Below, piece by piece: positions 20,957-63,528 of a DNA stretch of 64,000 bases (positions are counted from its first letter, which is position 1; each line of letters opens with the position of its first letter). Origin of the DNA: Parcubacteria group bacterium (GTDB taxonomy: Bacteria; Patescibacteriota; Minisyncoccia; Phycocordibacterales; UBA2135). The notes under the pieces were generated by a model. It was not told where the DNA came from, made no database searches, and was given only the letters and a program-made list of their open reading frames with translations. The translations under genes were made by a program, and so were the position numbers. The stretch lies in assembly GCA_016180525.1 (NCBI GenBank), contig JACPBB010000001.1, forward strand, positions 75,320-139,319, in the 5' to 3' direction.

Positions 20957-23900
20957 TTATTTGTTCTTTTTTAAAATCCTTACTACCCCCTCATTCGCAT
21001 CCACCTCCACGAGGTCGCCGTCTCTAAGAATTTTAGTGGCAACCCTGGTCCCTATGATACACGGGGTATCTAGTTCACGAGCAGAAATCGCCGCGTGAGA
21101 AAGCATTCCTCCAACATCGGTCACAATAGCCCCCGCCTTTTTTAGGCCGTCCATGAAGTCAGGATCTGTGGTTGCAGAAACAAGAATATCTCCTCTTTGC
21201 ATTTTGTCTATAGCGTTCTTTAGGACTTGAGGGTTGCTAAAGTCCCTACTAATAATTCTCACAATCCCTCTAATTTTTCTTCCAAGACCGTGCGCAATGG
21301 TTCCTTTTAAAATTCCTTCTTCTTTTTTTGTGTCGGGTGCAAATGTATCCCAGAGTTTAAGAGCCACCTCACCCGTATAGAGAAAGCGCCTACAATCTTT
21401 ATCAACATAAAATGCGTATGCTTTTTTTCGCTCTTCAATCTCAAATTCTGTTACCTTTTTATTCTCAAAAAGACAAAGCACTTCACTCTCTGTATACCAG
21501 CTGAACATTTCAGTTGAAATCTTAAACTGCTTACTTAATTTTTTAATAAGAGTCATGAGCCATCCATTGGAGTCTATAAAAGGCATATTGAGTCTTTCAC
21601 GAATTTCATTTTTGTAGTTTTCAATAAGTTTTACATTTTTTTTCGCTTGAGAATTTTTGCTAATTGATGCCCACATGCCGTCAGAATAATGAATGTCAAA
21701 ATATCTATATTCTCTGCAAATATCGGCTAGTTTTTTAAACATATATATGGCATCCTCTTTTGAAAAAATTTTCTTTCCCTGATAAACAGAGAGCTCTTGC
21801 TCCATGTCGTCAACTGTCTTTTTAATTGAATTGGTGCTTTTTTGTAGAGCTTTTGCGGTAAACGAGGAACCAATTTTATTAAGTTTTGCAACTGAATCTT
21901 TGTGCGCAAAAACACGAAGGATATAATTCTTCCATAAAACTAAAACCTCCCAGTTGCTATAATAAGACAATATAAGATCTTCAAATAAAAAAATTGACCC
22001 TTGCGATTCAAAAGAAAAAATAAAATCTTTCTTATCAAAGGCTGGGGCTTGCGAATCTTGTCTTTTTAAAACCCTCACCACCCCCTCATTCGCATCCACT
22101 TCCACAAGGTCGCCATCTTTTAAAACTTGCGTGGCGATTTTTGTGCCGATAACGCAGGGTTTTTTAAGTTCGCGTGATACAATGGCGGCGTGGGAAGTAA
22201 TACCACCTTCATCGGTAACAAAAGCAATTGCTTTTTTGAGAGCTGGCATAAATTCAGGAGTTGTCATTGCCGTTACCAAAACTTCTCCGTCGCGAACCGC
22301 CCCTATCTTACTTTTTGATATGATAACTCTCACTTTCCCCTTCGCATATCCTGCATACGCAGTAACGCCTTTTATAATATTAGTATCTTTGTTTTCAGCT
22401 CCTTTAATGCTGAGGCCTTCAAGCACTGCGTATTGAGCAACAGACATAAACTGAATCCCCCTAGCACCATAGACAAACCCTTTCATGCGTTTTTGTATTT
22501 CTTTTTCATTGGGCACTATCCCTTTTATTAAAAAATTATATGCTTCACCAAGAGAAATAAATTTGGCGTACGCTTCCTTTTTAAACATTCTTTTGCTAAT
22601 TTCTTGAGCAAGTTGTCTGGCAACCCTGTCCCCCTCAGGGCCAACTTTTTCAGTTTCAGCACGTGTTTTTGCCGCAACAGAAATCTCTTTTTCCCACCTC
22701 TTGTTTTCTGAATGATTTTCCATTTGAATCGGAAACCAGAAGTTTATTACAAACGTGGGCTCTAATTTTGTATGAGCATCAATAAAGTTTTTGAGCAATT
22801 TTGCTAATTCTTTATCAGAAAGACGAGATAATATACTTTTATCAACGGTATCAACTGTTCCCAGAAAGTTTTTATAGTGTTTAAATAATTCTTTTGAGTA
22901 TTTGCTTATAAAATTTTGATTTTTATCTAGTTCTGCTAGAATAAACGCCCTCATTTTTTCAATGTGCTCAATCGGCGCTCTATAAATATCAAGATGGTCT
23001 ACGTAAATATCAAACAACACTTCTGCGTAAGACCAATTAAATTGCTTGTTAAATTCTTTAGTAAATCCTTCATGCAGCATTTCTACTATAAATAACGGCC
23101 AATCGCGGGTAATGCTTTTTTCAAATATTAATTTACTAACCTTCTCTATTTTTACATTTGAAAGAGTGGTAATCGGCCGACTTTGAACAATATAAAATTT
23201 CCCTTTCTCATACGCCCACTCAATGTCAACCGGGAATTCGTAATGCTTTTCAATCTTAAGAACTAATTCGGAGAGTTGTAAAATTTGTTCATCAGTCAAA
23301 ACTTGCTTCTCGCCTTTTTCTTTTGGCACCGCAACCCACTCATTCCCTATTTCACCATTCGCGCGAATTAGAGATTTGTTTTGTGTAACAATGTTTTTAT
23401 CAACAATTCGTCTCGGCTCTTTTTCTACCACATACGAGTCAGGCGTAATTTGACCCGACACAATTGCCTCGCCAAGCCCGAGCGCCGCTTCAATAATGAG
23501 CTGATTATAGTCTTGCGTTACTGGATGAACTGAAAACGCAATACCCGACACCTCGCTCTCCACCATTTTCTGTACTACAACCGCGACAGAAATTTTCTGC
23601 GTATGAAGTCCTTTTTCAAAGCGGTAGAAAATAGCGCGCGGCGTAAAAAGTGAGGCCCAGCATTTCTGCACATTTTCAAGTAGTTTTTCTTCCGTGGTGT
23701 TTAAAAAACTGTCTAACTGCCCCGCCCATGCGGCAGTCGCGGAGTCCTCTGCTGTGGCAGATGAACGCACTGCAACATATTTTGCGCCAAGTTTTTTAAA
23801 AGATTTCCCAATATCTTTCGCAATATCTTTTGGCATCTTTGCTTCAAGAATAAGTGCCTGAATTTTCTCCGAAGCGTTTTCAACCGTATGCATTTGTTCG

Positions 23901-24100
23901 TGTTTTACCGTGTGAAGAATGGAATCAATCTCAATATTCAAGTCAGTCTCCGTAAGAAATTGTTCAAATGCATCAGCAAGTACGACAAATCCTGGGGGCA
24001 CTGGAATCCCCGCCCGTGTCATCTCTCCTAAAGAAGCCCCCTTGCCTCCGGCGGCAGAAACATCTGATTTTGATATATCTTTGAAAAATTTTAAAAACAT
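20957..24100 (-). CDS. PEP synthase / pyruvate-phosphate dikinase-like protein: N-terminal ATP-grasp (PPDK_N-like) domain plus two PEP-utilising phosphohistidine mobile domains; no C-terminal PEP/pyruvate TIM barrel
   Basis: N-term MFLKFF...GGKGASLGEM...PVPPGFVV; mobile-domain motifs GGITSHAAIVSRELKKPCVIG (middle) and GGMLSHAAISARELDTPCIIG (C-term). Confidence 0.75.
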   Translation of the reverse strand: MFLKFFKDISKSDVSAAGGKGASLGEMTRAGIPVPPGFVVLADAFEQFLTETDLNIEIDSILHTVKHEQMHTVENASEKIQALILEAKMPKDIAKDIGKSFKKLGAKYVAVRSSATAEDSATAAWAGQLDSFLNTTEEKLLENVQKCWASLFTPRAIFYRFEKGLHTQKISVAVVVQKMVESEVSGIAFSVHPVTQDYNQLIIEAALGLGEAIVSGQITPDSYVVEKEPRRIVDKNIVTQNKSLIRANGEIGNEWVAVPKEKGEKQVLTDEQILQLSELVLKIEKHYEFPVDIEWAYEKGKFYIVQSRPITTLSNVKIEKVSKLIFEKSITRDWPLFIVEMLHEGFTKEFNKQFNWSYAEVLFDIYVDHLDIYRAPIEHIEKMRAFILAELDKNQNFISKYSKELFKHYKNFLGTVDTVDKSILSRLSDKELAKLLKNFIDAHTKLEPTFVINFWFPIQMENHSENKRWEKEISVAAKTRAETEKVGPEGDRVARQLAQEISKRMFKKEAYAKFISLGEAYNFLIKGIVPNEKEIQKRMKGFVYGARGIQFMSVAQYAVLEGLSIKGAENKDTNIIKGVTAYAGYAKGKVRVIISKSKIGAVRDGEVLVTAMTTPEFMPALKKAIAFVTDEGGITSHAAIVSRELKKPCVIGTKIATQVLKDGDLVEVDANEGVVRVLKRQDSQAPAFDKKDFIFSFESQGSIFLFEDLILSYYSNWEVLVLWKNYILRVFAHKDSVAKLNKIGSSFTAKALQKSTNSIKKTVDDMEQELSVYQGKKIFSKEDAIYMFKKLADICREYRYFDIHYSDGMWASISKNSQAKKNVKLIENYKNEIRERLNMPFIDSNGWLMTLIKKLSKQFKISTEMFSWYTESEVLCLFENKKVTEFEIEERKKAYAFYVDKDCRRFLYTGEVALKLWDTFAPDTKKEEGILKGTIAHGLGRKIRGIVRIISRDFSNPQVLKNAIDKMQRGDILVSATTDPDFMDGLKKAGAIVTDVGGMLSHAAISARELDTPCIIGTRVATKILRDGDLVEVDANEGVVRILKKNK

Positions 24101-41647: not shown

Positions 41648-41705
41648 GTCCCATACTAAGCTTTGCTCTAGTATCGGAGTCAGCGGCCACGCACCAAATT
41701 TTCCC

Positions 41706-41777
41706 TCCGCGGTAGCTCAGCGGTAGAGCGGCTCCCTGTTAAGGAGATGGTCGCAGGTTCGATCCCTGCCCGCGGAG
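41706..41777 (+). tRNA. tRNA-Asn (anticodon GTT)
   Basis: Cloverleaf read manually: acceptor TCCGCGG/CCGCGGA, D-arm GCTC-AGCGGTA-GAGC, anticodon loop CTGTTAA, T-arm GCAGG-TTCGATC-CCTGC, discriminator G; CCA not encoded. Confidence 0.8.
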
Positions 41778-41835
41778 GAAAGATCTGGTGTGGAGTGTAA
41801 AGAACGTCGTGGCTCCCCGCCTAGAAAGTTTGAAA

Positions 41836-41855
41836 AAATCACACCACAAATTTTA
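41836..41855. repeat. Left copy of perfect 20-bp direct repeat AAATCACACCACAAATTTTA (right copy at 48946-48965)
   Basis: seen directly; flanks a ~7.1 kb accessory block next to tRNA-Asn. Confidence 0.7.
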
Positions 41856-41863
41856 GCGCGTAA

Positions 41864-44638
41864 TTGTACCTGTCCCCATTTTTAAATTTGGCAGAGAAAT
41901 TCGTAAAAATATCATTAAAGGTACAATTAGAGACAAGAGGCAAAATTAGAACCAAAAAATATTGCATGATTTATTGCAACATAGAAGATCTAAGAAACGA
42001 AAGCGACGTAGAGCAAAAGCTCTGCGTTCCTCTTATTACGACTTCTTCAGAAAAAGGTTTAGGCTACTCAAAAAGTGATTATAGTTCAAAAAAGACTCTT
42101 AAAAAAATGGTCATTGGCAAAAGCGGGGACAAAAAATCTTATCGCCCAGATTTCATTACATTTATTCAAGGAACGCCAGTATTGGTAATTGAAGCAAAAA
42201 GCCCAGAGGAAGACCTGACAGAGGGATATAGAGAAGCGAGATTGTATGCGAACGAGTTAAATGCCATATACCCCTCCGGAATAAATCCATGTACGAAGGT
42301 TCTGGTGACAAATGGTAAAGAAATTTGGTACGGCAAAAATGATGAAAGAGAAGTCTTCGGTAAATTAACTTTTAAAGATATCAACATTTCCAACAAGAAA
42401 TTTACTGATCTGTTAGATTTTTGCAGCAAAAGTAAGATTAATAATGAATTAGAGACTGTTATAAAAAAAACGCGCAGTAAAAAAAATTTTAGTAAACCAA
42501 CTGCAATACTTGGAGGAAAAGCGAGTAGGGAGGAGGAACTTGGAAGCAATACTTTTGGTTCTGCTTTAATGTATGAATATCAGAGAATATTCAACCCTGA
42601 AACAAGAGAAGACAGGGTAGAAATTGTCAGAAATGCTTATATACCTTCTACGGGAATTGAAAAACACAAGAGCCCAATTCGAAAGCTAATTCTCGCTACG
42701 CTGCCACCCAGCTTAAAAAACACAACGAAAATCGAAAATACATCAAAACCACGAGAACTTTTGAGCAAGCTCCTGTCCCCCCAAAGGCTATCCAATCAGC
42801 TAATTTTATTAATTGGTAATGTTGGATCAGGAAAAACTACCTTTATTGATTATTTGAGAGAAATCGTATTGCCCACAGAGATAAAAAATAAGACAACGTG
42901 GGTATATATTGATTTAAACTTCGCACCCAACACGAAAGATGAAATTTATCCCTGGGTCCAAGAAAAAATAGTTGCTCAATTGAAAGATACACACCAAGAA
43001 CTTAACCTCGATCACATTGATGAATTGAAAAAGCTATATGCTGGTGATATAGAAGCATTTGAAATTGGTGAAGGAAGTTTACTAAGAGATGACCCAAAAG
43101 AATATAATAAATTGCTTGCCAAACTGATCCAAGAAGCAAAGGCAGACAAAAATAAAACCGCTAAAGCATACACAAGATATTTATGCGGCGATAGAGGAAA
43201 AACATTTATACTCATACTTGATAATGGAGATAAGAGAAACAAAGAAGATCAACTGCTGATGTTCGAAGTGGCCAGATGGGCAAAAGAAGAGTTTCGAGCT
43301 TTAATATTTTTGTCACTACGAGATGTCACATACGATTTACACAAAACGGAGCCTCCTCTTGATACTGTTATCAAGGATATGGCCTTTAGAATTGATCCAC
43401 CAGAATTAAGCCAAGTACTTTACAGAAGAGTCGCATACGCAATTCAGAACTCACCGTCAAGGGGAATCAAAATGACCTTAAATAATATGGTTGTGAATAT
43501 CTCAAAAAAAGAACAAGACATGTATTTAAAATGTATTCTAGAATCGCTTTATAATTCAAGTCCGTTCTCAAGAAAATTGATAAATGGGCTGGCTGGAAGG
43601 GATCTGCGAAGAGGGATAGAGATATTTATAACGTTTTGTAGAAGTGGACATATTTCTAATAAAGAAATATTGAAAATGCGTGTCTCAAATGGTTCCCACC
43701 CCCTTGAAGAACACATCGTCTTGAGGGCTTTGTTAAGGGGTAGTAAGCGATTTTATTCAGGGAGAGACTCTTATATTAAAAACTTATTTGAAAGCTACCC
43801 GGACGAAGAAGTAATCCCCGATCCATTTGTGAGGATGTCAATATTGAAATGGTTTCAAGAAAAAAAAGCGATCCGAGGTCCTAGTGATGCTAAGGGCTTC
43901 CATCCTATCGCTGATCTAGAAACAGATCTCCAATTGATTGGACATAATGAGAAAAGAGTACGAAGTGAAGTAGTAAACTTGCTAAGAGAGCGCTGCCTCA
44001 TAAGTGAAGCGCAAACAGAAGAAATTCTTGCGGAGACAGATCCAAAAGAAATAGAAAAAGGAATTGAGGATAATGATCTGATAAAAATAGCGCCCGCTGG
44101 CACAATTCACTTAGACCTGCTTCTGAATATTGTTTATTTGTCTGCCTGTGCCGAGGATATTTGGTATTGGAGCCATCAGACGGCAACAACTATAAAGGAA
44201 CGACTAACAAGAGAACAGGGGGTTGGACATTATTCGTTATCGACCAACTTAAAAAATTCATCGGACCTAATTGATTATTTAATTGATTATCAAAAAAAAT
44301 ACTACCCCAACAATGAGACTATCATTGACAAAGACATTCCACGCATAGACCTACAAACAATTAAAAAATTTGTCTCTGAGAGAGAACTAAAGGTACAAAA
44401 CAAGAACTCTGACTTGAAGAGGCGTTACCCTTTTAATAAAGAGCTTGTATGTTCTATTGAGAGGATTATCCTCAGGGCTGGAATCAGAGTACTCGTAGAG
44501 CCGGGCGTCTACGGCTTCATCATGAAAAGAGACATAAGGCAAGCAGAAAGTTTCCAGCAAGGTAAAAAAGTCAAAGTGCGAGTCAATGGTCTAGATGAAG
44601 ATCGTAGTACGCTTATTTTAAGTCTAATAGAAAAATGA
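41864..44638 (+). CDS. Large hypothetical protein: N-terminal PD-(D/E)xK nuclease (HsdR-N/Mrr-like) motif fused to a P-loop NTPase
   Basis: YRPDFITFIQGTPVLVIEAK (PD...ExK); LLIGNVGSGKTTFIDYL Walker A; FILILDNGD Walker B; ~500 aa further of unknown function. Confidence 0.6.
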   Translation: MYLSPFLNLAEKFVKISLKVQLETRGKIRTKKYCMIYCNIEDLRNESDVEQKLCVPLITTSSEKGLGYSKSDYSSKKTLKKMVIGKSGDKKSYRPDFITFIQGTPVLVIEAKSPEEDLTEGYREARLYANELNAIYPSGINPCTKVLVTNGKEIWYGKNDEREVFGKLTFKDINISNKKFTDLLDFCSKSKINNELETVIKKTRSKKNFSKPTAILGGKASREEELGSNTFGSALMYEYQRIFNPETREDRVEIVRNAYIPSTGIEKHKSPIRKLILATLPPSLKNTTKIENTSKPRELLSKLLSPQRLSNQLILLIGNVGSGKTTFIDYLREIVLPTEIKNKTTWVYIDLNFAPNTKDEIYPWVQEKIVAQLKDTHQELNLDHIDELKKLYAGDIEAFEIGEGSLLRDDPKEYNKLLAKLIQEAKADKNKTAKAYTRYLCGDRGKTFILILDNGDKRNKEDQLLMFEVARWAKEEFRALIFLSLRDVTYDLHKTEPPLDTVIKDMAFRIDPPELSQVLYRRVAYAIQNSPSRGIKMTLNNMVVNISKKEQDMYLKCILESLYNSSPFSRKLINGLAGRDLRRGIEIFITFCRSGHISNKEILKMRVSNGSHPLEEHIVLRALLRGSKRFYSGRDSYIKNLFESYPDEEVIPDPFVRMSILKWFQEKKAIRGPSDAKGFHPIADLETDLQLIGHNEKRVRSEVVNLLRERCLISEAQTEEILAETDPKEIEKGIEDNDLIKIAPAGTIHLDLLLNIVYLSACAEDIWYWSHQTATTIKERLTREQGVGHYSLSTNLKNSSDLIDYLIDYQKKYYPNNETIIDKDIPRIDLQTIKKFVSERELKVQNKNSDLKRRYPFNKELVCSIERIILRAGIRVLVEPGVYGFIMKRDIRQAESFQQGKKVKVRVNGLDEDRSTLILSLIEK

Positions 44639-46244: not shown

Positions 46245-46751
46245 ATGAGACTTCCTCCTTCGTTAAAACTTCGGCGGACAAGCAATAATTTTTTCAGATT
46301 GGTTATTGCGATTGCGGTGTCAGAAGCGGCCGGAATTATCGGGTCAGTTTTCACCGTCTCGGCCATTCCGACTTGGTATGCCGGACTTGTGAAGCCGGCG
46401 CTCAATCCTCCGAGCTGGGTTTTCGGGCCTGTTTGGACGATACTCTATGCGCTGATGGGCATTGCGGCGTTTTGGGTGTGGCGTATGGGTTGGGAACGGA
46501 AAGAGATAAAAATGGCGCTTGGAGTGTTTGGCATCCAGCTTTTCTTAAATGCCATCTGGTCAATCATTTTCTTTGGTCTGCATAGCTCCACCTGGGCCCT
46601 CGTGGATATCATTCTGCTGTGGTTTGCAATCGTTTGGACAATGGTTGTTTTCTATAAAATTTCAAAGCCGGCAGCATATTTACTTATTCCATATCTTCTC
46701 TGGGTTAGTTTTGCTTCGTATCTTAATTATTCTATTTGGTTATTAAACTAA
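46245..46751 (+). CDS. tspO: TspO/MBR family tryptophan-rich sensory protein
   Basis: five TM helices, W/Y-rich conserved pattern (PSWVFGPVWTILYALMG...). Confidence 0.8.
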   Translation: MRLPPSLKLRRTSNNFFRLVIAIAVSEAAGIIGSVFTVSAIPTWYAGLVKPALNPPSWVFGPVWTILYALMGIAAFWVWRMGWERKEIKMALGVFGIQLFLNAIWSIIFFGLHSSTWALVDIILLWFAIVWTMVVFYKISKPAAYLLIPYLLWVSFASYLNYSIWLLN

Positions 46752-54298: not shown

Positions 54299-54865
54299 AT
54301 GAGTATTGCATCCACAGTTTACAACGCCGTACGTGACGCGATAGCTCTTTTTTTTGAGCCGCTCAGCATTGAAGACACGCCACGCTTGCAGAGAAATACT
54401 CCCAAAGTAAAGTCTCTTGTATCCGGTTTTTTAATTACCATAGAGCGGAAAAAAGGGTGTGTGCTTAAGAGTCGTCCTAAGGACTCTCCTGAGGAAACTC
54501 CTTATACAGATTCCGGAGTAGATGAATATTTTGAGGTTACGGTCACATTTGATCCAAAACAGAATGCCCAGTTTCCAAATGCAAAGGGTCCGTGGAAATT
54601 TTTACTCACCAACAGTATGAATAAAAACAGCGGCTATGGTTTTTCCGGGCGCGTTCACTACCAACCGCGTGGAGACAAATTCAAAATAATCGAAGTTGCG
54701 GAGGCATATGAAGATTACCGTCATGCCGATATCATAGGAGGTGGTAGACCTTCACCCGAGATGGTTGTATGGGTGCGAATCCATGTACAACAAGCAAACG
54801 GTACAACAACATACTCTGGAAACGGAATTGCCTGCCGACCCTGTTCTTCAGAAACTGGTATATAA
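54299..54865 (+). CDS. Hypothetical protein (188 aa)
   Basis: AGAGG RBS; terminator at 54876-54905. Confidence 0.5.
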   Translation: MSIASTVYNAVRDAIALFFEPLSIEDTPRLQRNTPKVKSLVSGFLITIERKKGCVLKSRPKDSPEETPYTDSGVDEYFEVTVTFDPKQNAQFPNAKGPWKFLLTNSMNKNSGYGFSGRVHYQPRGDKFKIIEVAEAYEDYRHADIIGGGRPSPEMVVWVRIHVQQANGTTTYSGNGIACRPCSSETGI

Positions 54866-54936
54866 TAATTTTTCTCGCCATCCCTTGGGGTGGCTTTTTT
54901 GTTTTTATAAAATAAAAAAATGAGTATACTTTTATT

Positions 54937-55281
54937 ATGGAAGAGCAGTGTTCTGTATGCAAAATAATACCAAAAGTTCTCGGCAAAAAATTTTTCTTTC
55001 ATCTTTTTGGGCACGAGTATCCAAAACTTTTCTCCAAAGATGTTGCAAAACATCTTATCGGTCTTAATTTAAAACTCGTCGGCGGACTCTCAACGCGCGG
55101 GTGGACCGTGCATGATGTTGACGTAACTGGAGAGAAAAAGGACGCCGCCGTTTTAGAAGAACGTCTGCGCAAGGACAACATCCCCCATCCTATCCATCTC
55201 TGTAGACAAAAACCAAACCACTCCCACTTTCTCTGCGCGTTAAACGGCATAAAACTCGTCCTCACCGGAAGGGGGTATTAA
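54937..55281 (+). CDS. Minimal nucleotidyltransferase (Pol-beta-like NTase fold) protein with N-terminal CxxC
   Basis: LVGGLSTRGWTVHDVDV fits the hG[GS]x9-13Dh[DE]h NTase signature. Confidence 0.5.
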   Translation: MEEQCSVCKIIPKVLGKKFFFHLFGHEYPKLFSKDVAKHLIGLNLKLVGGLSTRGWTVHDVDVTGEKKDAAVLEERLRKDNIPHPIHLCRQKPNHSHFLCALNGIKLVLTGRGY

Positions 55282-55290
55282 AAATTGACA
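55251..55290. repeat. Copy 1 of ~40-bp module AAAACTC(G/A)TCCTCACCGGAAGGGGGTATTAAAAA(A)TTGAC(A/G) (copy 2 at 57004-57044); contains a -35-like TTGACA
   Basis: seen directly. Confidence 0.6.
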
Positions 55291-55350
55291 ATTTTATTTC
55301 AATACAATAAGATTTATTTCAGTTTGCGGTCAACAAAAAGAGAGGTAGAA

Positions 55351-55923
55351 ATGCTATACGAAGACTATATGGTAGTTGCCTGTGGCATGCGCGAGAGTAA
55401 GGAACGATCAACATATTTTTGCGAACTAGTGGGAAACAGTGGATTTGGAGGCAGGAATCATAAAATTAACTTTAGTTTGATAATCAAAGGATGCGTAGGA
55501 GAGAAAGAATACCGTGCCAAATATGATGCTGTTATGCCGCACATTAAAGTAGGAGATCTGCTACATTGTGAGTTTGTTTGGCAGTGGCACGGTGATTTTC
55601 TCAATTTATGCCTGTCTGGGTTTATTCAGGTAAAACCATGCCGATTAGGATCAATCCAAAATGTTTCCGCTGAAGATTTTCTTAACCCTGATAGGGGCTA
55701 CTGGGTAAGAACAAAAGTCGTCGGAAAATGGGTCCACTTTCCCGGAGTCATTCACTGTGGCGGTAATGCGTTTATTCCCCTAAACTTGAGGAGTGGGTAT
55801 CCTCAGTTAGTAGATTCAGGTTATTCAGAATCAGCACAAGGCGCCCTCGTGTGGAAGCCAAAACCGAAACGACTGGTACGAAACATCGTGAGGGAATTCT
55901 TCAAACCACTCTTTCAAGAATAA
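55351..55923 (+). CDS. Hypothetical protein (Cys/His/Trp-rich; six-frame ORF starts 55285)
   Basis: ORF with terminator 55932-55955. Confidence 0.45.
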   Translation: MLYEDYMVVACGMRESKERSTYFCELVGNSGFGGRNHKINFSLIIKGCVGEKEYRAKYDAVMPHIKVGDLLHCEFVWQWHGDFLNLCLSGFIQVKPCRLGSIQNVSAEDFLNPDRGYWVRTKVVGKWVHFPGVIHCGGNAFIPLNLRSGYPQLVDSGYSESAQGALVWKPKPKRLVRNIVREFFKPLFQE

Positions 55924-56025
55924 TTTGAGTTAGCCGACAGATAGTCGGCTTTTTCTTTTTTAGAAAACTTGACATTTTTATTGTGGTAATGTAATATTTA
56001 TTTCGGACAAAAAGGAGGTTTCCGA

Positions 56026-56493
56026 ATGGCTACAACTAAGTACCCGCCCATTTCTCCCGGAACACTTGTGAAGACAACGCAGCCAAATTTGAATTTAAGA
56101 CATCAGTGGACAGATGAAGGGTGGGCAAGTAAGAAGTCGTGGGTTCAAGGAAAGGTCATCACCCACCACGATTCTCATGGCCTTTGCTATGATGTAGAGC
56201 ACGAGGACGGAACGGTGGGCTGCTATGATCCATCAGAGATTGAAGCGGTTCGAGAGACACCCGATCTCGCAAGAGAGGAGAGGCGGAGAGAAGCAGAGAT
56301 GGTTCTCCATCATGATGATTCTCCCTGTACCGCGCGCTTGAACAAAAATGGATACTGCCCTGAATGTAAATTTGTTCCGGATATGCAGAGTACGTGTTTT
56401 TATTATTACTGTCCCGCATGCAATATTCCATTACCCTCAAAAAGCATGACTTGCACCCAGTGTAACCATACCTTCGCGAAGCCCGGTAAATAG
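56026..56493 (+). CDS. Hypothetical protein with C-terminal double zinc-ribbon
   Basis: AAAGGAGG RBS; CPECK...CPAC...CTQC cysteine pairs; terminator 56482-56510. Confidence 0.5.
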   Translation: MATTKYPPISPGTLVKTTQPNLNLRHQWTDEGWASKKSWVQGKVITHHDSHGLCYDVEHEDGTVGCYDPSEIEAVRETPDLAREERRREAEMVLHHDDSPCTARLNKNGYCPECKFVPDMQSTCFYYYCPACNIPLPSKSMTCTQCNHTFAKPGK

Positions 56494-56588
56494 CCGGGTT
56501 TTTCTTTTTTACATTTACTAGATATTATATTTGAGTTGTGATATGTTGGTAGCAGATAAAATCAGCCTCTGTAAGTGAGAAAGCCGAG

Positions 56589-56951
56589 ATGAAAACACCG
56601 CGCATCAGCTTTAACATTCGGATTGACGATAAAGGCTCCTTTTCCGGAAAGCAAATAATGAATGCCGTACGCAAAGTAGCGGGAGACGCTTACCACGAAG
56701 TTCTTGTAGAGGTCAAAGATGACAGAATGTTTTATGAGATAGGACATAATTCACCAAGTCCGGAAAGCGATTGCGTTGTTTCCGCCGATGGTGGCAATAT
56801 ATGTCCCCAAGAAAGATATAGTGAGGTAATAACAATACAATCTCATAAACATGAGGGAGAAAAGTTTGCGGTTAATGTGCCCCTTGAAACAGCCGTGAAA
56901 AGACTTCGTGATTTAAGCAAACAAGTTGCATCCATTCTGTTAAAAAAGTAA
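56589..56951 (+). CDS. Hypothetical protein (120 aa)
   Basis: ORF with terminator 56958-56982. Confidence 0.45.
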   Translation: MKTPRISFNIRIDDKGSFSGKQIMNAVRKVAGDAYHEVLVEVKDDRMFYEIGHNSPSPESDCVVSADGGNICPQERYSEVITIQSHKHEGEKFAVNVPLETAVKRLRDLSKQVASILLKK

Positions 56952-57003
56952 ATGTGAAATCCGCTTGAAAGCGGATTTTTTATATCTTATTCACAAAAAT
57001 TTA

Positions 57004-57044
57004 AAACTCATCCTCACCGGAAGGGGGTATTAAAAAATTGACGT
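57004..57044. repeat. Copy 2 of the ~40-bp promoter-proximal module
   Basis: seen directly. Confidence 0.6.
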
Positions 57045-57099
57045 TTTTGTCTTCCTGTGTTATTTTTAAAACAGAGGTTCGGTCAATGAGAGGTGCGGC

Positions 57100-57897
57100 G
57101 TGAAAGAACTTTTTGTACTCGGAGCACATGATCCGGAGATGGTCCGCATTATTGCCCTTTTAGAGGGTGCGGGAAAAAATTTTATCTATGCAAAAAAAGA
57201 CGGAGAGCGAGTCCGCTCCGGTACTGCATATGAAGCAAATAATAAAGATGAAATACCCGATACTGTCCGAGTGATTTTTGTTGAGTGTGAAGTGGCCGGC
57301 GTAATGCCATCATTTCGTATTGATCACCACCGCCCCGGAGATCCCGGATATGACAAGCGACCGGAAGAATATTTGCTTGGATCATCTCTCGGACAATTGT
57401 GTGCGTATCTTGAGAGAACACCCACCGAGGAAGATACAGTAATTGCGGCTATGGATCATTGCTTTCACGCCGCAGTAAAAGGCCTGTGCCCCGGAGTTTC
57501 TCCGTCCGCTGTGCTTAAAATGAAAATTGAAAAAATCGCAGAGGGGTACAATTGTTCCACCAAAGAGGTTGAAAAAGAGATAAGGCGATTTCAAGAAATA
57601 ATCAGCACTTCCGAAACCATCCTCATAGGTGATCAATCTGTGCATGATGTCATTGGATCTTTAGGAGTTGGCTACACATTACAATTGCTTACAGCCTTAA
57701 CGGCAGCAACAATAGAGAGAAAGGCGGTATTACTCCATGCCTTTGACACGAAGGGTGGCCCCGAAAAATTAATTTTAGGCGGCGATGTGCATGAGAAAAC
57801 GGTACGTTATTTTATGCAAATATGGGCACCTGCTAATAGTCTTGAAAAAATTTTTGGAACGCCGAGCAGAGGATATGCCGGAGGATATCGAAAATAA
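57100..57897 (+). CDS. Hypothetical protein (265 aa; GTG start; contains IDHHRPGDPGY)
   Basis: ORF with terminator 57904-57927. Confidence 0.45.
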   Translation: MKELFVLGAHDPEMVRIIALLEGAGKNFIYAKKDGERVRSGTAYEANNKDEIPDTVRVIFVECEVAGVMPSFRIDHHRPGDPGYDKRPEEYLLGSSLGQLCAYLERTPTEEDTVIAAMDHCFHAAVKGLCPGVSPSAVLKMKIEKIAEGYNCSTKEVEKEIRRFQEIISTSETILIGDQSVHDVIGSLGVGYTLQLLTALTAATIERKAVLLHAFDTKGGPEKLILGGDVHEKTVRYFMQIWAPANSLEKIFGTPSRGYAGGYRK

Positions 57898-58008
57898 ATG
57901 TAGACTGCTGTAAGGCAGTCTTTTTTAATTAGAAACAAACTCCTTTATGTAGTATGCCCAGTTACATTTGACAAAACGGTATATTATGGGAACCTGTCCG
58001 AAGACAGT

Positions 58009-60675
58009 TTGTTGACACAGAGGACGCACATGCGCCTTGTCTTTGTCCGTTTTTTGCTTTTTATTGTCAGGCTCCTGCTGCCCCTTCATTACAGAATACG
58101 GATAAAAAATATTGAGGCCGTTAAGAATTTCAAGGGCGGGCTTATCATGCCGGACCACGTAGCTCTCATTGACCCCGTCATTTTGATGAGTCATGTGTGG
58201 AGATATACGAAAGCACGCCCTGTTGCATACACGGGACAGTTTGTGCAGCACCAACATGTCATGAAACTGATACGCGCATTGCCTATGGATAGCACGAGCG
58301 ACGGAGCAAGCGCGTGGAAAGTCTGGAAAATTAACAAACAAAAAAAAGCTGTGCAAGAAGCGCTCGCCTCAGGAGAAAATATTCTTATTTACCCGTCTGG
58401 ACAACTACGGGTCGGAGAATTTGAATCACTCGGTGGAAAAACTGCCACATTTGAACTCATGAAACAGAATCCGAATGCGCCAATTCTTTTAGTGCGCATC
58501 AGAGGACTGCGTGAAAGTCTCTTGTCACGGTTTTTCACGGATGGAGTACAAGTTCCCTCTTCAAAACATATGCTCGCGCTCATAAAGAAAAACTGGTGGA
58601 AACTCCTCACGCGTCGCGTGGAAGTTTCCCTAGAGTGCGAGCGGTTTGATACAGCCCCCTCTTTCCGAAATGCGCGAGAATGCAATGAATGGCTTGAGAA
58701 ATGGTATCATCAAACACCTGACCCTCTCATTTCCGGACGCGATACCTGGAATGTCGGCGGGTTTTCGTACAATGCACGCATAAGCGAACATGATAATACC
58801 CCGATTGACCCTTCAATTGATAAGAAAGTGCGCACGCATATTGCAAACGAAGCGAATAAAAAACCGGGAGACATACATCTTGACCAAGAACTTGTGAAGG
58901 ACCTGGGATTTGATTCACTTACGACTGCAACATTTTATTTCTGGATTGAAGAGCAATTTGGCCGCACAGTAGATATGAATGTTCCACTCCACACCGTCCG
59001 CGACGTAGTACTTGCGGCCTCAGGAGTATTCGGAGAAATATCTACTAAAGATGACTCTCCAGTACCTCCCCGCTGGATTGAGCATGGCCGAAAAACGCCT
59101 CTCTATCCAATTGAAGTGGAAAATATTCCGGCTGCATTTTTAAGTACCTTGCGGAGAATGGGACGAGGACGGATTGCGATGGGAGATGAGCGTGCAGGAA
59201 TTCTTACCTACGGACAAACCCTGGAGCGAGCCCTTATGCTCTCCGACATTCTGCGAGAACTTCCGGGTGAGTGCGTTGGCATCATGCTTCCCGCATCAGT
59301 CGCCGCGACCATTACTGGGCTTGCGGTAATGCTTTCGGGAAAAGTGCCTGCATTTCTCAACTGGACAAACGGACAATCTCCGCTTGATGAATCAATCCGC
59401 CTTGCTGAAATAAAAACAATTCTCACCTCTGACGCGTTCCTTGATAAAGCACAAGTGATGCTCTCGAATGAAACCGCACAGATCATCCTGCCACTTGAGG
59501 AGATGCGAAAGCGTATCGGCCTCTCTTCGCTTTTAAAAGCAAAAATACGTTCACGTCTTCCCACTTCTCTATTGTTTAGAATTCTGGGCCTACATCTTTC
59601 AAAAAAAGATGATGCCGTAATTTTATTCACGAGTGGCTCTGAAAAAGCACCAAAAGGCGTGCGCCTCACTCACGGCAACATTCTTTCAAACATTGACGGG
59701 GCGCTTGAAGCAATTGAGAGTACGAAAGACGACGTCATGCTTGGATTTCTGCCCCCGTTTCACTCATTCGGGCTTACCCTCATTGCGATGCTCTGCCTTG
59801 TGGGCGGAGTAAAAACCGCATTTGACGCTGACCCCAAAAAATATCGTCGACTTGCAAGGCAGGCTCGTAAATGGAGAGCAACGCTTATTCCGGGCACGCC
59901 TGATTTTCTAAGCGGAATCATATCCGCCGGAACACCGGATGATTTTAAAACCGTGCGAGCGTTTCTTGCGGGAGCGCAGAAAACACCGCAGTCGCTTCGC
60001 GATCGCGCACAAGAGCTTAGCGGAGTGGTGCTTGAGGGATACGGCATCACCGAAACAGGGCCGCTTGTCGCGGTGAACAGATTAGATGAGCCGGCGGTAG
60101 GAGTTGGCAGGCCGATCAAAAACACACATATATGCATTGTTCATCCGGAAACAAAAACATTTTGTGCGCACGGAACAGAGGGGTTGATTTTGGTGCGAGG
60201 GCCAGGCGTATCCGTCGGATACCTTGGAGAAGTTCCGTTCCCAAAAATTTATGCCGAAAACAGATTGTGGTACAACACGGGCGATCTCGGAATGTTGAGC
60301 TCTCGCGGAGAACTGATAATTACCGGACGATTATCGCTCTTTCTAAAATCAGGCGGCGAAATGATAAGTATTCCTGCAGTTGAAGAAGCACTCATAACTC
60401 GCTGGCCTTCAAATGAAAATGGACCCGTGCTTACAGTGCACGGAGAAGAGCGAGAGGGTGAAACCGCCATTTTGTGCCTATATACGAAAGATGAAACAAT
60501 TACCTGCGATGACGCGAACAAAGTTTTGAAAGAAGCGGGATTTAATCCGCTTTCGTATGTGCGCGTACGATGCGTACTTCCGGAAATTCCCCTTCTTGGA
60601 ACCGGTAAGACAAATCGCCGCGCGCTGCCGAAACCAACGGAAGTCCTCAAACTACAGAAGCAGGAAATTGTGTAG
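58009..60675 (+). CDS. Tri-domain Aas-like enzyme: PlsC-type lysophospholipid acyltransferase + phosphopantetheine-binding carrier domain + acyl-AMP/acyl-ACP synthetase (ANL)
   Basis: H(X)4D box PDHVALIDP; carrier-protein motif LGFDSLT; AMP-binding motifs FTSGSEKAPKGV ... GYGITETG ... YNTGDLG ... GRLS..LKSGGE. Confidence 0.75.
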   Translation: MLTQRTHMRLVFVRFLLFIVRLLLPLHYRIRIKNIEAVKNFKGGLIMPDHVALIDPVILMSHVWRYTKARPVAYTGQFVQHQHVMKLIRALPMDSTSDGASAWKVWKINKQKKAVQEALASGENILIYPSGQLRVGEFESLGGKTATFELMKQNPNAPILLVRIRGLRESLLSRFFTDGVQVPSSKHMLALIKKNWWKLLTRRVEVSLECERFDTAPSFRNARECNEWLEKWYHQTPDPLISGRDTWNVGGFSYNARISEHDNTPIDPSIDKKVRTHIANEANKKPGDIHLDQELVKDLGFDSLTTATFYFWIEEQFGRTVDMNVPLHTVRDVVLAASGVFGEISTKDDSPVPPRWIEHGRKTPLYPIEVENIPAAFLSTLRRMGRGRIAMGDERAGILTYGQTLERALMLSDILRELPGECVGIMLPASVAATITGLAVMLSGKVPAFLNWTNGQSPLDESIRLAEIKTILTSDAFLDKAQVMLSNETAQIILPLEEMRKRIGLSSLLKAKIRSRLPTSLLFRILGLHLSKKDDAVILFTSGSEKAPKGVRLTHGNILSNIDGALEAIESTKDDVMLGFLPPFHSFGLTLIAMLCLVGGVKTAFDADPKKYRRLARQARKWRATLIPGTPDFLSGIISAGTPDDFKTVRAFLAGAQKTPQSLRDRAQELSGVVLEGYGITETGPLVAVNRLDEPAVGVGRPIKNTHICIVHPETKTFCAHGTEGLILVRGPGVSVGYLGEVPFPKIYAENRLWYNTGDLGMLSSRGELIITGRLSLFLKSGGEMISIPAVEEALITRWPSNENGPVLTVHGEEREGETAILCLYTKDETITCDDANKVLKEAGFNPLSYVRVRCVLPEIPLLGTGKTNRRALPKPTEVLKLQKQEIV

Positions 60676-60684
60676 CTTTTGTGC

Positions 60685-60712
60685 AAATCCCGACCAATGG
60701 TCGGGATTTTTT
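60685..60712. terminator. Intrinsic terminator TCCCGACC-aatg-GTCGGGA + T6 (near-identical to the one at 61861-61887)
   Basis: seen directly. Confidence 0.65.
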
Positions 60713-60785
60713 AAACCATTGACAAATCTTTTTTAATTAGTTATTATTTTACACAGAAAAACTAATTGAGAGGCGGGTTTACGCA

Positions 60786-61823
60786 ATGAGTCACGCGCAG
60801 AAAACTATTGATGTGCATTGTCATCTTCATCATTTTGGCGATGAAAAACACGGGTATGTTCATCCGCAGTTTATAAACGGAGTTCGTGCCCGTTATTTTA
60901 TGAGATCCATGGGTCTTATAACCGTTAAAGAAATGCTTGGTATGAAAAAGACAGACAAGGTACGTTTATCATATAAATATGCGCAACAACTAAAAGACAC
61001 GGCAGAAAATTCATCTCTAGACCATGTGGTAATACTTGCGCTCGACGGTGTCTATTCCGGCGGCATATCGTTTGATAAAGAGCAGACAACATTTTATGTT
61101 AGTAATGATCTGGTTTTTGAATTTATTGGTAATTCAAAAAAAATGAAATGTGGAGCTTCAATTAATCCAAGCCGCCCCGACTGGGAAGACGAGCTTGATA
61201 AAAGCGCCGAGCAGGGAGCGGTGCTCATTAAGTGGCTACCCTGTACTATGGGCTTTGACCCCTCTAATCCTCAATATATTCCATTCTATGAAAAACTGCT
61301 TCATTATAAACTGCCGCTTTTATCTCATGTTGGATTTGAATACGCCCTGAATAATATCAACCCACGCTTTTCTGACTTAGACCGATTGCAATTACCGCTC
61401 CAGATGGGAGTTACGATCATTGCCGCTCATTGCTGCGGCGGGCGTCCTTTTGTTGATAGCGAAAAAATGTTTCAGGAGATGAAAAAATATATGGAGCGCT
61501 ATCCAACACTGTATACTGATGTTTCTGCAATGGCTGTCGTAACCAGGAAGCATAGATTTAAAAAGTGCCTTGCTAACCCTATCATTAAGAAGCGGCTGAT
61601 ATACGGATCTGATTATCCTGTGCCCTATCAGTCCTGGGCATTTACTGCTGAGCTCAAGGATGCAAAGCTAGATATTCGCGATGTTCACAATTTTTTTGAC
61701 CGAGACATATTGATTAAAAAAGCATGTGGCCTTTCTCATGAACACCTTGCGGCGGGTACTGCACTTATGAGAATGCCCCCAGGACAACATGAACTATGTT
61801 CTCCAAAAGAAATCGTCCAGTAA
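60786..61823 (+). CDS. Amidohydrolase-2-type metal-dependent TIM-barrel hydrolase
   Basis: IDVHCHLHHF N-terminal metal-ligand motif, later HV/D motifs, GSDYPVP. Confidence 0.65.
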   Translation: MSHAQKTIDVHCHLHHFGDEKHGYVHPQFINGVRARYFMRSMGLITVKEMLGMKKTDKVRLSYKYAQQLKDTAENSSLDHVVILALDGVYSGGISFDKEQTTFYVSNDLVFEFIGNSKKMKCGASINPSRPDWEDELDKSAEQGAVLIKWLPCTMGFDPSNPQYIPFYEKLLHYKLPLLSHVGFEYALNNINPRFSDLDRLQLPLQMGVTIIAAHCCGGRPFVDSEKMFQEMKKYMERYPTLYTDVSAMAVVTRKHRFKKCLANPIIKKRLIYGSDYPVPYQSWAFTAELKDAKLDIRDVHNFFDRDILIKKACGLSHEHLAAGTALMRMPPGQHELCSPKEIVQ

Positions 61824-61974
61824 GGGATATCGTCCGTAGTCGTGAACGGTAGACGCTTTATATCCCGACCTTGTGTCGGGATTTTTTAATCTTCAGTTTT
61901 ACTTGACAAAAGATGGTTTTTATGCTTTTCTAAATCAAGATACCTCAACGACATTCCGAGAAGGAGCAGCATCC

Positions 61975-63492
61975 ATGAACGTGGGTTGTTTCCGCATTTT
62001 CGATCTGATCTTTAAATTTGGCGACTGGTTTTTAGCGCTCGTTGGGCACCATTACGCTGTTTTCCGCTGGTTTGTGAGATGGACACCAGCTCCGCTTATT
62101 CGTTATTCAAGCAGGCTTCGAGCATGGCGTGCGTACAAACACGCATCTCTTTTTGTACCCGCTTATAGAGAATTTTTAAAAGCCCGCGATTACTTACCGT
62201 GTGTAAAGCAATACGAACAGATTCCTGAAACCGATAAAGATAATTACATAAAAAAGTTTTCTACTGATGCGCGCTGTGTCAAGGGTGTGATTCCCTCTAC
62301 TAATATAGTCATAGACGAATCTTCCGGCAGTTCCGGCACGCCATATAATTGGGTGCGCTCGCTTGAAGAGCGGCGTGTAAGTCACTTACTTGTCAGCCAC
62401 TTCGCTCGTTTTTGCTTCGGTACACCATCCCGTCTCATCACCATCAACGCGTTCTCAATGGGCTCTTGGGCAACCGGGCTTAACATGGGACTCGCGCTTC
62501 AGAAGAATGGTCTTGTAAAAAATGTTGGGCCCGACATAGAGAAGATCCTTCACACGCTCCAATTCTTCGGCCCCTCCTATTCGTATCTTATCTGCGGGTA
62601 TCCCCCATTTCTCAAATACCTCATTGATGAAGCAGGCGCACGAAAGTTTCCACTTTCCGAATACGAGCTTTTAGGCCTCGTAGGCGGGGAAGGAATGTCG
62701 GAAGGACTGCGAGATTATCTCCTTGCGCGCTTTAAGAAGGTCTACAGCGGATATGGCGCAACTGACTTAGAAATCGGAATCGCCGGAGAATCGCCGATAT
62801 CGGTCGCTATACGCAGAGAGGCGCGAAACAATACCGCGCTGCGACACGCGCTATTTGGAGAAGATTCTCGCTTGCCGATGCTATTTCACTACAACCCCAT
62901 GATGCACCATATTGAGGTGAATGCAAACAAAGAACTAATTTTTACAATCACGCGCTTGAATGTATTATCTCCTCGTGTGAGATACAACATACATGACGAA
63001 GGCGGAGTTATGGATTTTGGTACCATGGTCTCAAAATGCAGAGACCAGGGGCTCGATCTTGCAGAGAAATTCGGTTCAGAATATGCTGCTATGCCACGCC
63101 TGCCATTCATGTGGATATATGGCCGTAAAGATTCAACCATCAGTGTCATGGGAGCAAACATTTATCCCGAAGACATTGAACAATGTCTCTATGCAGAGCC
63201 TGCGCTTGCGAAAATCACGAGGTCGTTCTGCATTGGACTCCACGAAGAGCAAAATCAGGAAGTGCGCCCATCTTTTTCATTCGAGATAGTGGGCAGCGAT
63301 ATTACAGAAAAACTCAAGGAGGAGTTTCAGCAGAAGATTCTTCGGCATCTCATCGCGCTTAACAAAGATTTCAAGGAGGCGTGGCACGAGCATAAAGCTA
63401 CGCTTATACCAACCATCAATTTGTGGCCCGAGCACGAGGGACCGTTCAAGCAAGACTCTAGCCGTATTAAACAAATTAGAGTGATAAAATAG
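61975..63492 (+). CDS. PaaK/F390-synthetase-like adenylate-forming enzyme (ANL superfamily; ORF extends 5' to 61873)
   Basis: IDESSGSSGTPYNW (SSGTTG-like P-loop of PaaK family), YGATD, C-terminal domain. Confidence 0.6.
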   Translation: MNVGCFRIFDLIFKFGDWFLALVGHHYAVFRWFVRWTPAPLIRYSSRLRAWRAYKHASLFVPAYREFLKARDYLPCVKQYEQIPETDKDNYIKKFSTDARCVKGVIPSTNIVIDESSGSSGTPYNWVRSLEERRVSHLLVSHFARFCFGTPSRLITINAFSMGSWATGLNMGLALQKNGLVKNVGPDIEKILHTLQFFGPSYSYLICGYPPFLKYLIDEAGARKFPLSEYELLGLVGGEGMSEGLRDYLLARFKKVYSGYGATDLEIGIAGESPISVAIRREARNNTALRHALFGEDSRLPMLFHYNPMMHHIEVNANKELIFTITRLNVLSPRVRYNIHDEGGVMDFGTMVSKCRDQGLDLAEKFGSEYAAMPRLPFMWIYGRKDSTISVMGANIYPEDIEQCLYAEPALAKITRSFCIGLHEEQNQEVRPSFSFEIVGSDITEKLKEEFQQKILRHLIALNKDFKEAWHEHKATLIPTINLWPEHEGPFKQDSSRIKQIRVIK

Positions 63493-63499
63493 AAAAAGT

Positions 63500-63528
63500 A
63501 CCCGTCTTAATTGGCGGGTTTTTTATTT
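63500..63528. terminator. Intrinsic terminator ACCCGTC-ttaattg-GCGGGT + T-run
   Basis: seen directly. Confidence 0.65.

Follow-up and report, generated by a model that had tools for sequence, protein, structure and literature searches.

A candidate enzyme for lysolipid re-acylation in a Parcubacteria genome: an Aas-like fusion with a built-in acyl carrier domain

The bifunctional protein Aas of Escherichia coli (b2836) combines an N-terminal 2-acylglycerophosphoethanolamine acyltransferase with a C-terminal acyl-ACP synthetase (ACP, acyl carrier protein), which were delimited in a 2024 study as Aas-T (residues 1-203) and Aas-S (residues 204-719); its reaction cycle has been established, and it takes free holo-ACP as a separate substrate (PMC11416262). 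Fused LplT-Aas proteins (PRK08633/PRK06814, ~1140 aa, e.g. P0060 of Campylobacter) are themselves uncharacterised (PMC11416262), and a chlamydial system composed of AasC and the acyltransferase CT775 has been described (PMC5693948). In this study, an Aas-like gene was analyzed in a 64-kb window, which is the whole 64,000-nt stretch of contig JACPBB010000001.1 (Parcubacteria assembly GCA_016180525.1) and to which all coordinates refer. The gene (gene 1, 58030..60675, plus strand, as are all features of genes 1 to 3) encodes an 881-aa fusion of an acyltransferase, an acyl carrier domain, and an acyl-ACP synthetase, as identified from Pfam, NCBIfam, a comparison with E. coli Aas, and an alignment of 55 full-length homologues. 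The reading favored here, with a rough probability of 0.58, is that gene 1 encodes a self-contained relative of Aas that would activate free fatty acid, load it on a carrier domain within the same chain, and re-acylate lysolipids.

Domain architecture and comparison with Aas

The open reading frame (ORF) of gene 1 opens at TTG 58009 and is on the same strand as two further ORFs of 58009-63492. An earlier reading made from the sequence alone (the sequence-only reading) had given the protein a length of 888 aa; the ORF from TTG 58009 is indeed present, but the true start is likely ATG 58030, which is preceded 5 nt upstream by the ribosome-binding site GAGGA (58020..58024) and from which an 881-aa product was called by gene callers on four independent contigs. 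The three domains proposed in that reading were found by Pfam in the order given, all exceeding their gathering scores: Acyltransferase at residues 29-159 (25.6 bits, cut-off 23), PP-binding at residues 273-324 (27.5 bits, cut-off 20.8), and AMP-binding at residues 387-739 (188 bits). The motifs it had quoted were also located, namely HVALID (H43-D48), DSL (Ser296), and TSGSEKAPK. Among the 55 homologues, the invariant residues included H43, D48, D295, the P-loop T534-S-G-x-E-x-x-P-K542, E669-G-Y-G-x-T-E675, D752, R767, and K860. The top NCBIfam models were PRK08633 (396 bits), PRK06814, PRK06334 (305 bits), and PRK08043 (231 bits).

The domain order of gene 1 is that of E. coli Aas, with which the protein is colinear from residue 1. 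In the alignment, residues 9-168 correspond to Aas 2-148, at 24% identity across 174 aa (E 9e-5), and residues 364-862 to Aas 204-703, at 31% identity across 518 aa (E 4e-58). The HX4D motif and all motifs of the ANL domain are common to both proteins. The main difference is an insert of ~140 residues in gene 1 that contains the carrier, while no PP-binding match was found in E. coli Aas or in the canonical LplT-Aas fusion of Campylobacter. The earlier claim that the protein carries the activity set of Aas was thus supported at the level of homology: it is a colinear Aas relative with a built-in ACP, the single domains of which are best matched by Aas/LplT-Aas or AcpP models. The hosts also differ, as E. 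coli is a proteobacterium and gene 1 resides in a Gram-positive-like bacterium within the CPR (Candidate Phyla Radiation).

The acyltransferase domain (residues 1-235, 58030..58734) was assigned a PlsC fold with an N-terminal hydrophobic helix from an AlphaFold2 (AF2) model of residues 1-370 (pLDDT 88.2, pTM 0.79), Foldseek, and NCBIfam. A Foldseek search with this model retrieved PlsC (5kym, E 1.6e-6, TMt 0.58, probability 1.0), which shares the fold and the HX4D dyad but only 12% identity with the acyltransferase domain of gene 1, the latter being additionally fused to a carrier and a synthetase. When the domain was searched alone against NCBIfam, the LplT-Aas model PRK08633 was the top match (E 2.5e-10), followed by further Aas-type models (1e-5 and 3e-4), and the PlsC model TIGR00530 (E 0.011) came behind the Aas models. 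The catalytic HX4D motif (H43-D48, 58156-58173) showed no degeneracy, since H43 and D48 are invariant in all 55 homologues. Motif III (58390-58401) reads YPSG in place of the FPEG of E. coli Aas and of PlsC, and its consensus in the family is LIYPSGxL.

The AcpP-type acyl carrier domain (residues 259-332, 58804..59025) was recognized not only by PP-binding but also, when searched alone, by the AcpP model TIGR00517 for ACPs of the fatty-acid-synthase type (E 5e-8), and it shares 29% identity with E. coli AcpP (E 1e-7). Foldseek superposed it on the structures of dozens of type II ACPs, with TMt 0.75-0.84 and rmsd 1.2-2.2 A. Ser296 (codon 58915-58917), to which phosphopantetheine is predicted to be attached, is located at the N-terminus of helix II, where it opens the helix 296-310 of the AF2 model, and the domain thereby displays the four-helix ACP fold with the serine of the DSL motif at the start of helix II. 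Conservation of this serine had been proposed as a check on the carrier, and the serine and its DSL motif were kept in 54 of the 55 homologues. A degenerate or chance match to PP-binding was accordingly ruled out by the fold, the conservation of the serine, and the matches to AcpP models. Between the carrier and the adenylation domain, residues 333-365 (59026..59124) form a linker of low model confidence (AF2 pLDDT 57-70), which the model suggests is probably a flexible tether.

The ANL acyl-ACP synthetase domain (residues 366-881, 59125..60672) was identified by AMP-binding, by NCBIfam models of the Aas type, and by its similarity to Aas-S. Of these models, PRK06334, a long-chain fatty acid--[ACP] ligase, was matched over its full length. 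Its P-loop TSGSEKAPK (59629-59655), its EGYGITE (60034-60054) and TGD (60277-60285) motifs, and the catalytic Lys860 (60607-60609) are in place, with the motif residues invariant. The PRK06334 model is one that we take to be linked to chlamydial AasC/CT776. The chlamydial system shares with the reading of gene 1 the logic of scavenging in a host-dependent organism. In Chlamydia, fatty-acid synthesis is present and three distinct proteins serve as synthetase, ACP, and acyltransferase, whereas gene 1 carries all three functions on one chain.

An ANL domain combined with a carrier is also the standard loading logic of nonribosomal peptide synthetases (NRPS) and polyketide synthases (PKS), and weak matches to adenylation domains were obtained. 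Gene 1 might on these grounds serve a secondary-metabolite pathway as the module that loads a lipid starter, similar to a fatty acyl-AMP ligase paired with an ACP, rather than being a membrane-lipid enzyme. This is the least probable of the explanations considered, and only a very slim chance is given to it, as the domain order is acyltransferase-ACP-ANL with an acyltransferase of the Aas type, the carrier resembles AcpP and not a peptidyl carrier protein, and no NRPS, PKS, condensation, or thioesterase genes were found in the loci examined.

Family, host, and probable origin

The N-terminal acyltransferase-ACP module was searched with phmmer against 1.84 billion representatives, with clusters defined at 50% identity. 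This gave 677 clusters at E <= 1e-3 and still 403 when the limit was lowered to E <= 1e-10. The matches fell into two length classes of ~870-910 aa and ~1270-1340 aa. Members of the long class have the order MFS_1, Acyltransferase, PP-binding, and AMP-binding, where the MFS part and E. coli LplT could be aligned along their entire lengths (21% identity, 383 aa). Such N-terminal MFS fusions made up about one quarter of the best family matches.

In a neighbor-joining tree rooted on E. coli Aas, which is rough, the ACP-containing proteins formed a clade with 100/100 bootstrap support, apart from canonical Aas and the LplT-Aas fusions. On the sequences compared, this clade is placed as a large sister clade of canonical Aas, and gene 1 is assigned to an Aas-like paralogous family rather than to the orthologues of Aas. 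That gene 1 is a simple Aas orthologue, a possibility against which the sequence-only reading had advised checking, was ruled out by its separate position at 100/100, its scores below the equivalog cut-offs, and the inserted carrier. The canonical LplT-Aas fusions differ in a similar manner: although PRK08633 is the top NCBIfam model of gene 1, these proteins have no carrier domain and branch in a separate clade, while gene 1 has no transporter domain. What is set apart by the tree is a large uncharacterised sister family of Aas, which comprises hundreds of clusters with the carrier built in throughout and some LplT-like fusions. Such a family would offer a natural system for studying the hand-over of acyl-ACP between the two active sites of Aas. 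In the literature searched, no paper on the tri-domain architecture or on Aas-like genes in the CPR was found.

The named members of the clade belong to four groups, namely Parcubacteria/Patescibacteria, Alphaproteobacteria, Blastopirellula of the Planctomycetota, and Parachlamydiales, where a metagenome-assembled genome (MAG) encodes the tri-domain member P0376. Besides these, four proteins of the LplT-Aas type that branch beside the ACP clade (P0057, P0059, P0078, and P0079, two of which are ~1260-1290 aa long) have no DSL at the position of the carrier, with for example QLGATAVN or ELGVEAFA instead. They may contain a degenerate, serine-less carrier-like insert and represent evolutionary intermediates.

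The nearest relative of gene 1, P0002/P0515, is 64% identical and pairs with it at 100/100. P0515 is annotated as "Patescibacteria group bacterium" and is encoded on a contig of 129 kb that was obtained from the 0.1-um filtrate of groundwater. This pair was joined at 74/100 by a tight group of relatives of 51-55% identity, which are encoded on contigs of 62-66% GC titled Devosia, Hyphomicrobiaceae, Bradyrhizobiaceae, or Alphaproteobacteria; one of these contigs is 6 Mb long and has a gene content typical of a free-living bacterium. A horizontal acquisition is likely, as the nearest relative belongs to another Patescibacteria genome and those that come after it belong to high-GC Alphaproteobacteria. 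In its simplest interpretation, the rough tree suggests that a CPR lineage would have received the gene long ago from an alphaproteobacterium-like donor and kept it, at least in two genomes of the CPR. For Patescibacteria, horizontal gains of acpP and of a gene for a lysophospholipase have been described (PMC12455944). The GC content of gene 1 (48.2%) is the highest of the 35 genes in the window (z 1.65), and its GC at third codon positions (GC3) is ordinary (z 1.0). A scan of metagenomes added three further loci, all of the alphaproteobacterial type, and no new CPR locus.

The proteins of the window match those of a Parcubacteria MAG exactly (MBI21086xx), the contig is 344,533 bp long, and a 99.5%-identical contig from an independent binning effort is also labelled CPR. 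The housekeeping genes in the window include two mreB, mreC, two PBP2-type transpeptidases, a Mur ligase, RsmH, LysRS, RRF, GreA, peptide deformylase, Fmt, ribosomal protein L25, and a class II aldolase. A mis-binned contaminant contig is hence unlikely, in view of the 344-kb length, these housekeeping genes, and the uniform naming as Parcubacteria. It is further opposed by the GC3 of gene 1, which is near the window mean, by the best named match of gene 3, which is from Lloydbacteria, and by the orthologue on the 129-kb Patescibacteria contig.

Proposed reaction cycle and competing readings

CPR bacteria are described as lacking lipid synthesis, that of fatty acids and phospholipids included, and as having membranes rich in lysolipids, and enzymes that use ACP were not found among them (PMC7242380). 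A 2024 review noted that no lipid uptake mechanism had been identified in Patescibacteria (PMC11665869). For the question of how CPR or Patescibacteria obtain their membrane lipids, gene 1 provides a specific and clonable candidate; its interest derives mainly from its CPR host.

In the proposed cycle, the C-terminal ANL domain would use ATP to convert a free long-chain fatty acid to acyl-AMP, and the AcpP-type carrier within the same protein would receive the acyl group on the phosphopantetheine thiol at Ser296. The carrier would then swing on its flexible linker and dock on the N-terminal acyltransferase domain at the membrane surface, where His43 and Asp48 of the HX4D motif would catalyse the acylation of a lysolipid, most probably a lysophospholipid, at its free hydroxyl and regenerate a diacyl lipid. 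This would be the reaction cycle of Aas with the ACP in cis, by which scavenged fatty acids and lysolipids could be turned into diacyl lipids in a CPR cell. Such a role would agree with the description of CPR membranes as rich in lysolipids and deficient in synthesis (PMC7242380), and it would address the gap in lipid acquisition noted for Patescibacteria (PMC11665869). Gene 1 would in that case supply, in a single polypeptide, every protein function for making a diacyl lipid from a fatty acid and a lysolipid. As such ATP-dependent chemistry needs no separate ACP, the enzyme could work without a fatty-acid synthase in a Parcubacteria cell. The hypothesis can be tested by heterologous expression, for which the organism need not be cultivated.

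No fab, acpP/ACP, pls, or phosphopantetheinyl-transferase genes were found among the scanned ORFs of the 64-kb window. The earlier statement that fatty-acid biosynthesis genes are missing from the window agrees with this result at that scope. A Parcubacteria host fits the associated idea of scavenging and re-acylation, and the absence of fab genes applies to the window only. In its boldest form, the hypothesis would have a CPR bacterium without ACP or fatty-acid synthase build or repair its diacyl lipids through this one acquired enzyme, perhaps with the neighboring Amidohydro_2 enzyme releasing fatty acids from host lipids. We consider this larger claim rather unlikely; if true, it would be the first concrete molecular route of membrane-lipid acquisition in Patescibacteria.

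Several observations count against the reading of gene 1 as a self-contained Aas relative that re-acylates lysolipids. The protein scored below every NCBIfam equivalog cut-off, with 231 vs 886 bits for PRK08043 and 396 vs 1221 bits for PRK08633, and the literature searched included no characterised member of the tri-domain clade, so the activity of gene 1 rests on homology. The carrier requires a phosphopantetheinyl transferase plus coenzyme A, and the former was not among the scanned ORFs of the window. Neither a gene for LplT, the transporter with which E. coli Aas works, nor another lipid gene was found among the scanned ORFs of the window. An MFS gene adjoins the fusion gene neither there nor at L019, the fusion locus of a second CPR genome, though about a quarter of the best family matches are themselves MFS fusions. 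Within the CPR, the fusion gene was found in two genomes, and this rarity implies that it is not a general CPR solution. The tri-domain architecture also occurs in free-living Alphaproteobacteria that have their own ACP, and the built-in carrier is therefore not an adaptation to the loss of ACP; it may instead be a family trait that eased the transfer. Additionally, the acyltransferase domain is divergent, both in its Pfam score (25.6 bits, vs 87 for E. coli Aas) and in the YPSG of motif III.

A further point of this kind comes from a contig variant of the same species. Positions 1-2258 of L001, a 2.3-kb MAG contig from the GTDB species representative, correspond to window 58695-61190 at 99.5% identity, and the contig has a frameshifting deletion of 238 nt (window 58945-59182) by which the C-terminal half of the carrier and the linker are removed. 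Three Logan contigs from related runs are intact at this site. The deletion is either a misassembly near the contig end or a real population variant.

Owing to the divergence of the acyltransferase domain, the acceptor may differ from that of Aas. The same chemistry with an ACP in cis could serve a lyso-betaine lipid or glycolipid, a lyso-ornithine lipid, or glycerol-3-phosphate/lysophosphatidic acid, the last for making phosphatidate de novo out of scavenged fatty acids. In line with this, Foldseek also matched the acyltransferase part of the model to the plant glycerol-3-phosphate acyltransferases 8ia1 and 1iuq, and the lysolipids attributed to CPR bacteria had betaine head groups (PMC7242380). 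In contrast, the domain searched alone was matched best by the Aas/LplT-Aas models and not by PlsC, members of the clade are fused to an LplT-like lysophospholipid transporter, and the clade is sister to canonical Aas. An acceptor other than a lysophospholipid is thus a possible but doubtful alternative.

The rarity of the gene in the CPR, its GC content, the deletion in the contig variant, and the lack of a phosphopantetheinyl transferase among the scanned ORFs could also be explained if gene 1 were a horizontally acquired accessory gene that serves this host little or not at all, for example as an apo-enzyme that is never phosphopantetheinylated, and were decaying. This is improbable given the state of the gene. 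Its ORF is intact and identical on the Logan contigs L008-L010, and the same protein is present in the NCBI MAG. The catalytic residues are all kept in both CPR orthologues despite 36% divergence, the GC3 is well ameliorated, and the gene has its own ribosome-binding site and terminator. Lysolipid re-acylation with the carrier in cis is the reading that we prefer for gene 1.

Neighboring genes and transcription signals

In the sequence-only reading, gene 1 formed a lipid- or acyl-handling cluster with the two downstream genes. The transcription signals do not agree with such a cluster, as the genes from 56589 to 63492 each have their own intrinsic terminator. The terminator of gene 1 (TCCCGACCAATGGTCGGGATTTTTTAA, 60688..60714), located from the sequence and a motif scan, is followed by a strong promoter-like site of the sigma-70 type for gene 2 (TTGACA-17-TATTAT, 60719..60747, 11/12 matches), and sequence scans placed the terminators of genes 2 and 3 at 61863..61889 and 63500..63519, respectively. 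The first two genes had been said to share near-identical terminators, and their stems and T-tails proved to be identical. Both have the form TCCCGACC-N4-GTCGGGATTTTTTAA, of which two copies were found in the window vs 0 expected; they differ only in the 4-nt loop, and a TTGACA box comes after each. Whether the pair arose from a local duplication of a terminator-promoter cassette may be asked.

Gene 2 (60786..61823) encodes a 345-aa metal-dependent TIM-barrel hydrolase of the Amidohydro_2 family. The domain-model check that had been suggested for the locus gave scores above the cut-off for this family (PF04909, 44.1 bits, cut-off 26.4) as for the three domains of gene 1, and the assignment as an amidohydrolase-2 enzyme was upheld by the conserved metal ligands HxH...H...H...D, where H11 and H13 are nearly invariant and H181, H215, and D276 are invariant. 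Among solved structures, a profile search placed the uncharacterised protein 3irs nearest to it (E 1.6e-4). At L019, an Amidohydro_2 protein 46% identical to that of gene 2 (E 5e-96) is encoded 2.1 kb from the fusion gene, on the opposite strand and with GIY-YIG, Obg, and YgjP-like genes between. The amidohydrolase and the fusion gene were the only parts of this 22-kb locus that matched the window. This recurrence, seen in two genomes, is compatible with a loose functional link as well as with co-inheritance, and gene 2 may be a partner of gene 1.

Other close relatives of gene 2 (45-49% identity) were found on contigs with archaeal content, such as Cbf5/Pus10, PAC2, a TFIIB-type zinc ribbon, and Kae1 (e.g. 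L018:6001-7029), and no lipid genes were found on these contigs. The split among the relatives suggests an exchange between CPR bacteria and archaea, which are perhaps DPANN-like. The genes that flank the fusion gene at L019 also include one for a small cupredoxin and one for a copper-containing nitrite reductase NirK (L019:12697-13932), for which the 311 bits obtained with TIGR02376 exceed the cut-off. A 548-aa FAD oxidase at the same locus was considered as an ether-lipid enzyme and rejected, since it is of the GlcD/YdiJ type and not related to lipids.

Gene 3 (61975..63492) encodes a 505-aa adenylate-forming enzyme of the PaaK family, as identified by Foldseek, phmmer, and invariant motifs. 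The annotated start GTG 61873 (539 aa) falls inside the terminator of gene 2, while ATG 61975 is preceded by GAAGGAG and gives 505 aa, the approximate length of ~120 homologues among the matches listed. Based on the homologue lengths and the ribosome-binding site, 61975 is taken to be the true start rather than 61873. The AF2 model of gene 3 (pLDDT 89.9) matched PaaK1 (2y27) in Foldseek with an E of 4.7e-22 and a TMt of 0.77, phmmer against the PDB retrieved PaaK 2y4o weakly (E 4e-4), and the P-loop ESSGSSGTP and the C-terminal K499 are invariant. The protein is named phenylacetate-CoA ligase family protein by NCBI. Of the earlier description as PaaK/F390-synthetase-like, the PaaK fold, the P-loop, and the lysine were recovered, but orthology was not: the scores were 16.9 bits against 646 for the phenylacetate-CoA ligase model TIGR02155 and 17.7 bits against 459 for the F390 synthetase model TIGR03335, the identity to PaaK structures is 15-18%, and there was no Pfam match. 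No paa genes were found near gene 3, and nothing in the analysis pointed to the handling of aryl acids that had been proposed for the locus. The homologues of gene 3 (57-84% identity, more than 2800 matches) are spread over many phyla with variable and unrelated neighbors. The family is 57-60% identical across Bacteroidota, Fibrobacterota, Dehalococcoidia, Poribacteria, and the CPR; it has an additional N-terminal helical extension of ~80 aa on the PaaK fold and no conserved gene context.

These neighborhoods bear on a further alternative, in which the three genes form one pathway for acyl or aryl acids: the PaaK-like enzyme would activate an acid, the amidohydrolase would process it, and the fusion would install it. 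The genes are adjacent on the same strand, the terminators of genes 1 and 2 are nearly identical, and in the second CPR genome, where the other neighbors are different, the fusion gene again has an amidohydrolase gene close by. A three-gene operon or pathway was nevertheless rejected on the basis of the separate terminators and promoters and the lack of conserved synteny, and its chance is rated as very small. Neither the amidohydrolase nor the PaaK-like gene adjoins the fusion gene at any of nine alphaproteobacterial loci (L002-L007, L011, and L021-L022), no PaaK-like gene is present within 10 kb of it at L019, the PaaK-like homologues stand alone among unrelated neighbors, and the other close relatives of the amidohydrolase are on the archaeal-looking contigs without lipid genes. 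The amidohydrolase is therefore the only neighbor that recurs, and its association with the fusion gene is weak. Gene 3 is probably functionally independent of gene 1 and most likely unrelated to it.

Several other features were observed in the window. Just upstream of gene 1 (54299-57897), six small genes on the same strand encode products of 188, 114, 190, 155, 120, and 265 aa with no Pfam or NCBIfam match, where the 155-aa product is Cys-rich with CxxC pairs. At least the last two of these genes, which were those covered by the scan, have their own terminators (56956-56979 and 57902-57921). On the minus strand, 20957-24100 encodes a protein of 1047 aa in which a PPDK_N ATP-binding domain is combined with two mobile domains of phosphoenolpyruvate (PEP) utilizers; it is annotated as hypothetical, and its architecture is unusual for an enzyme of the PEP synthase or phosphotransferase-like kind in a CPR genome. 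At 41705-44638, a tRNA-Asn is followed by a gene of low GC content (36.8%, z -2.4) for a 924-aa protein in which the N-terminus is that of an HSDR_N restriction enzyme, an AAA ATPase is included, and the C-terminus is an S1 domain. Integration as an island, or a role in defence, is possible for this locus. Additionally, a membrane protein of the TspO/MBR family (175.9 bits) is encoded at 46245-46751.

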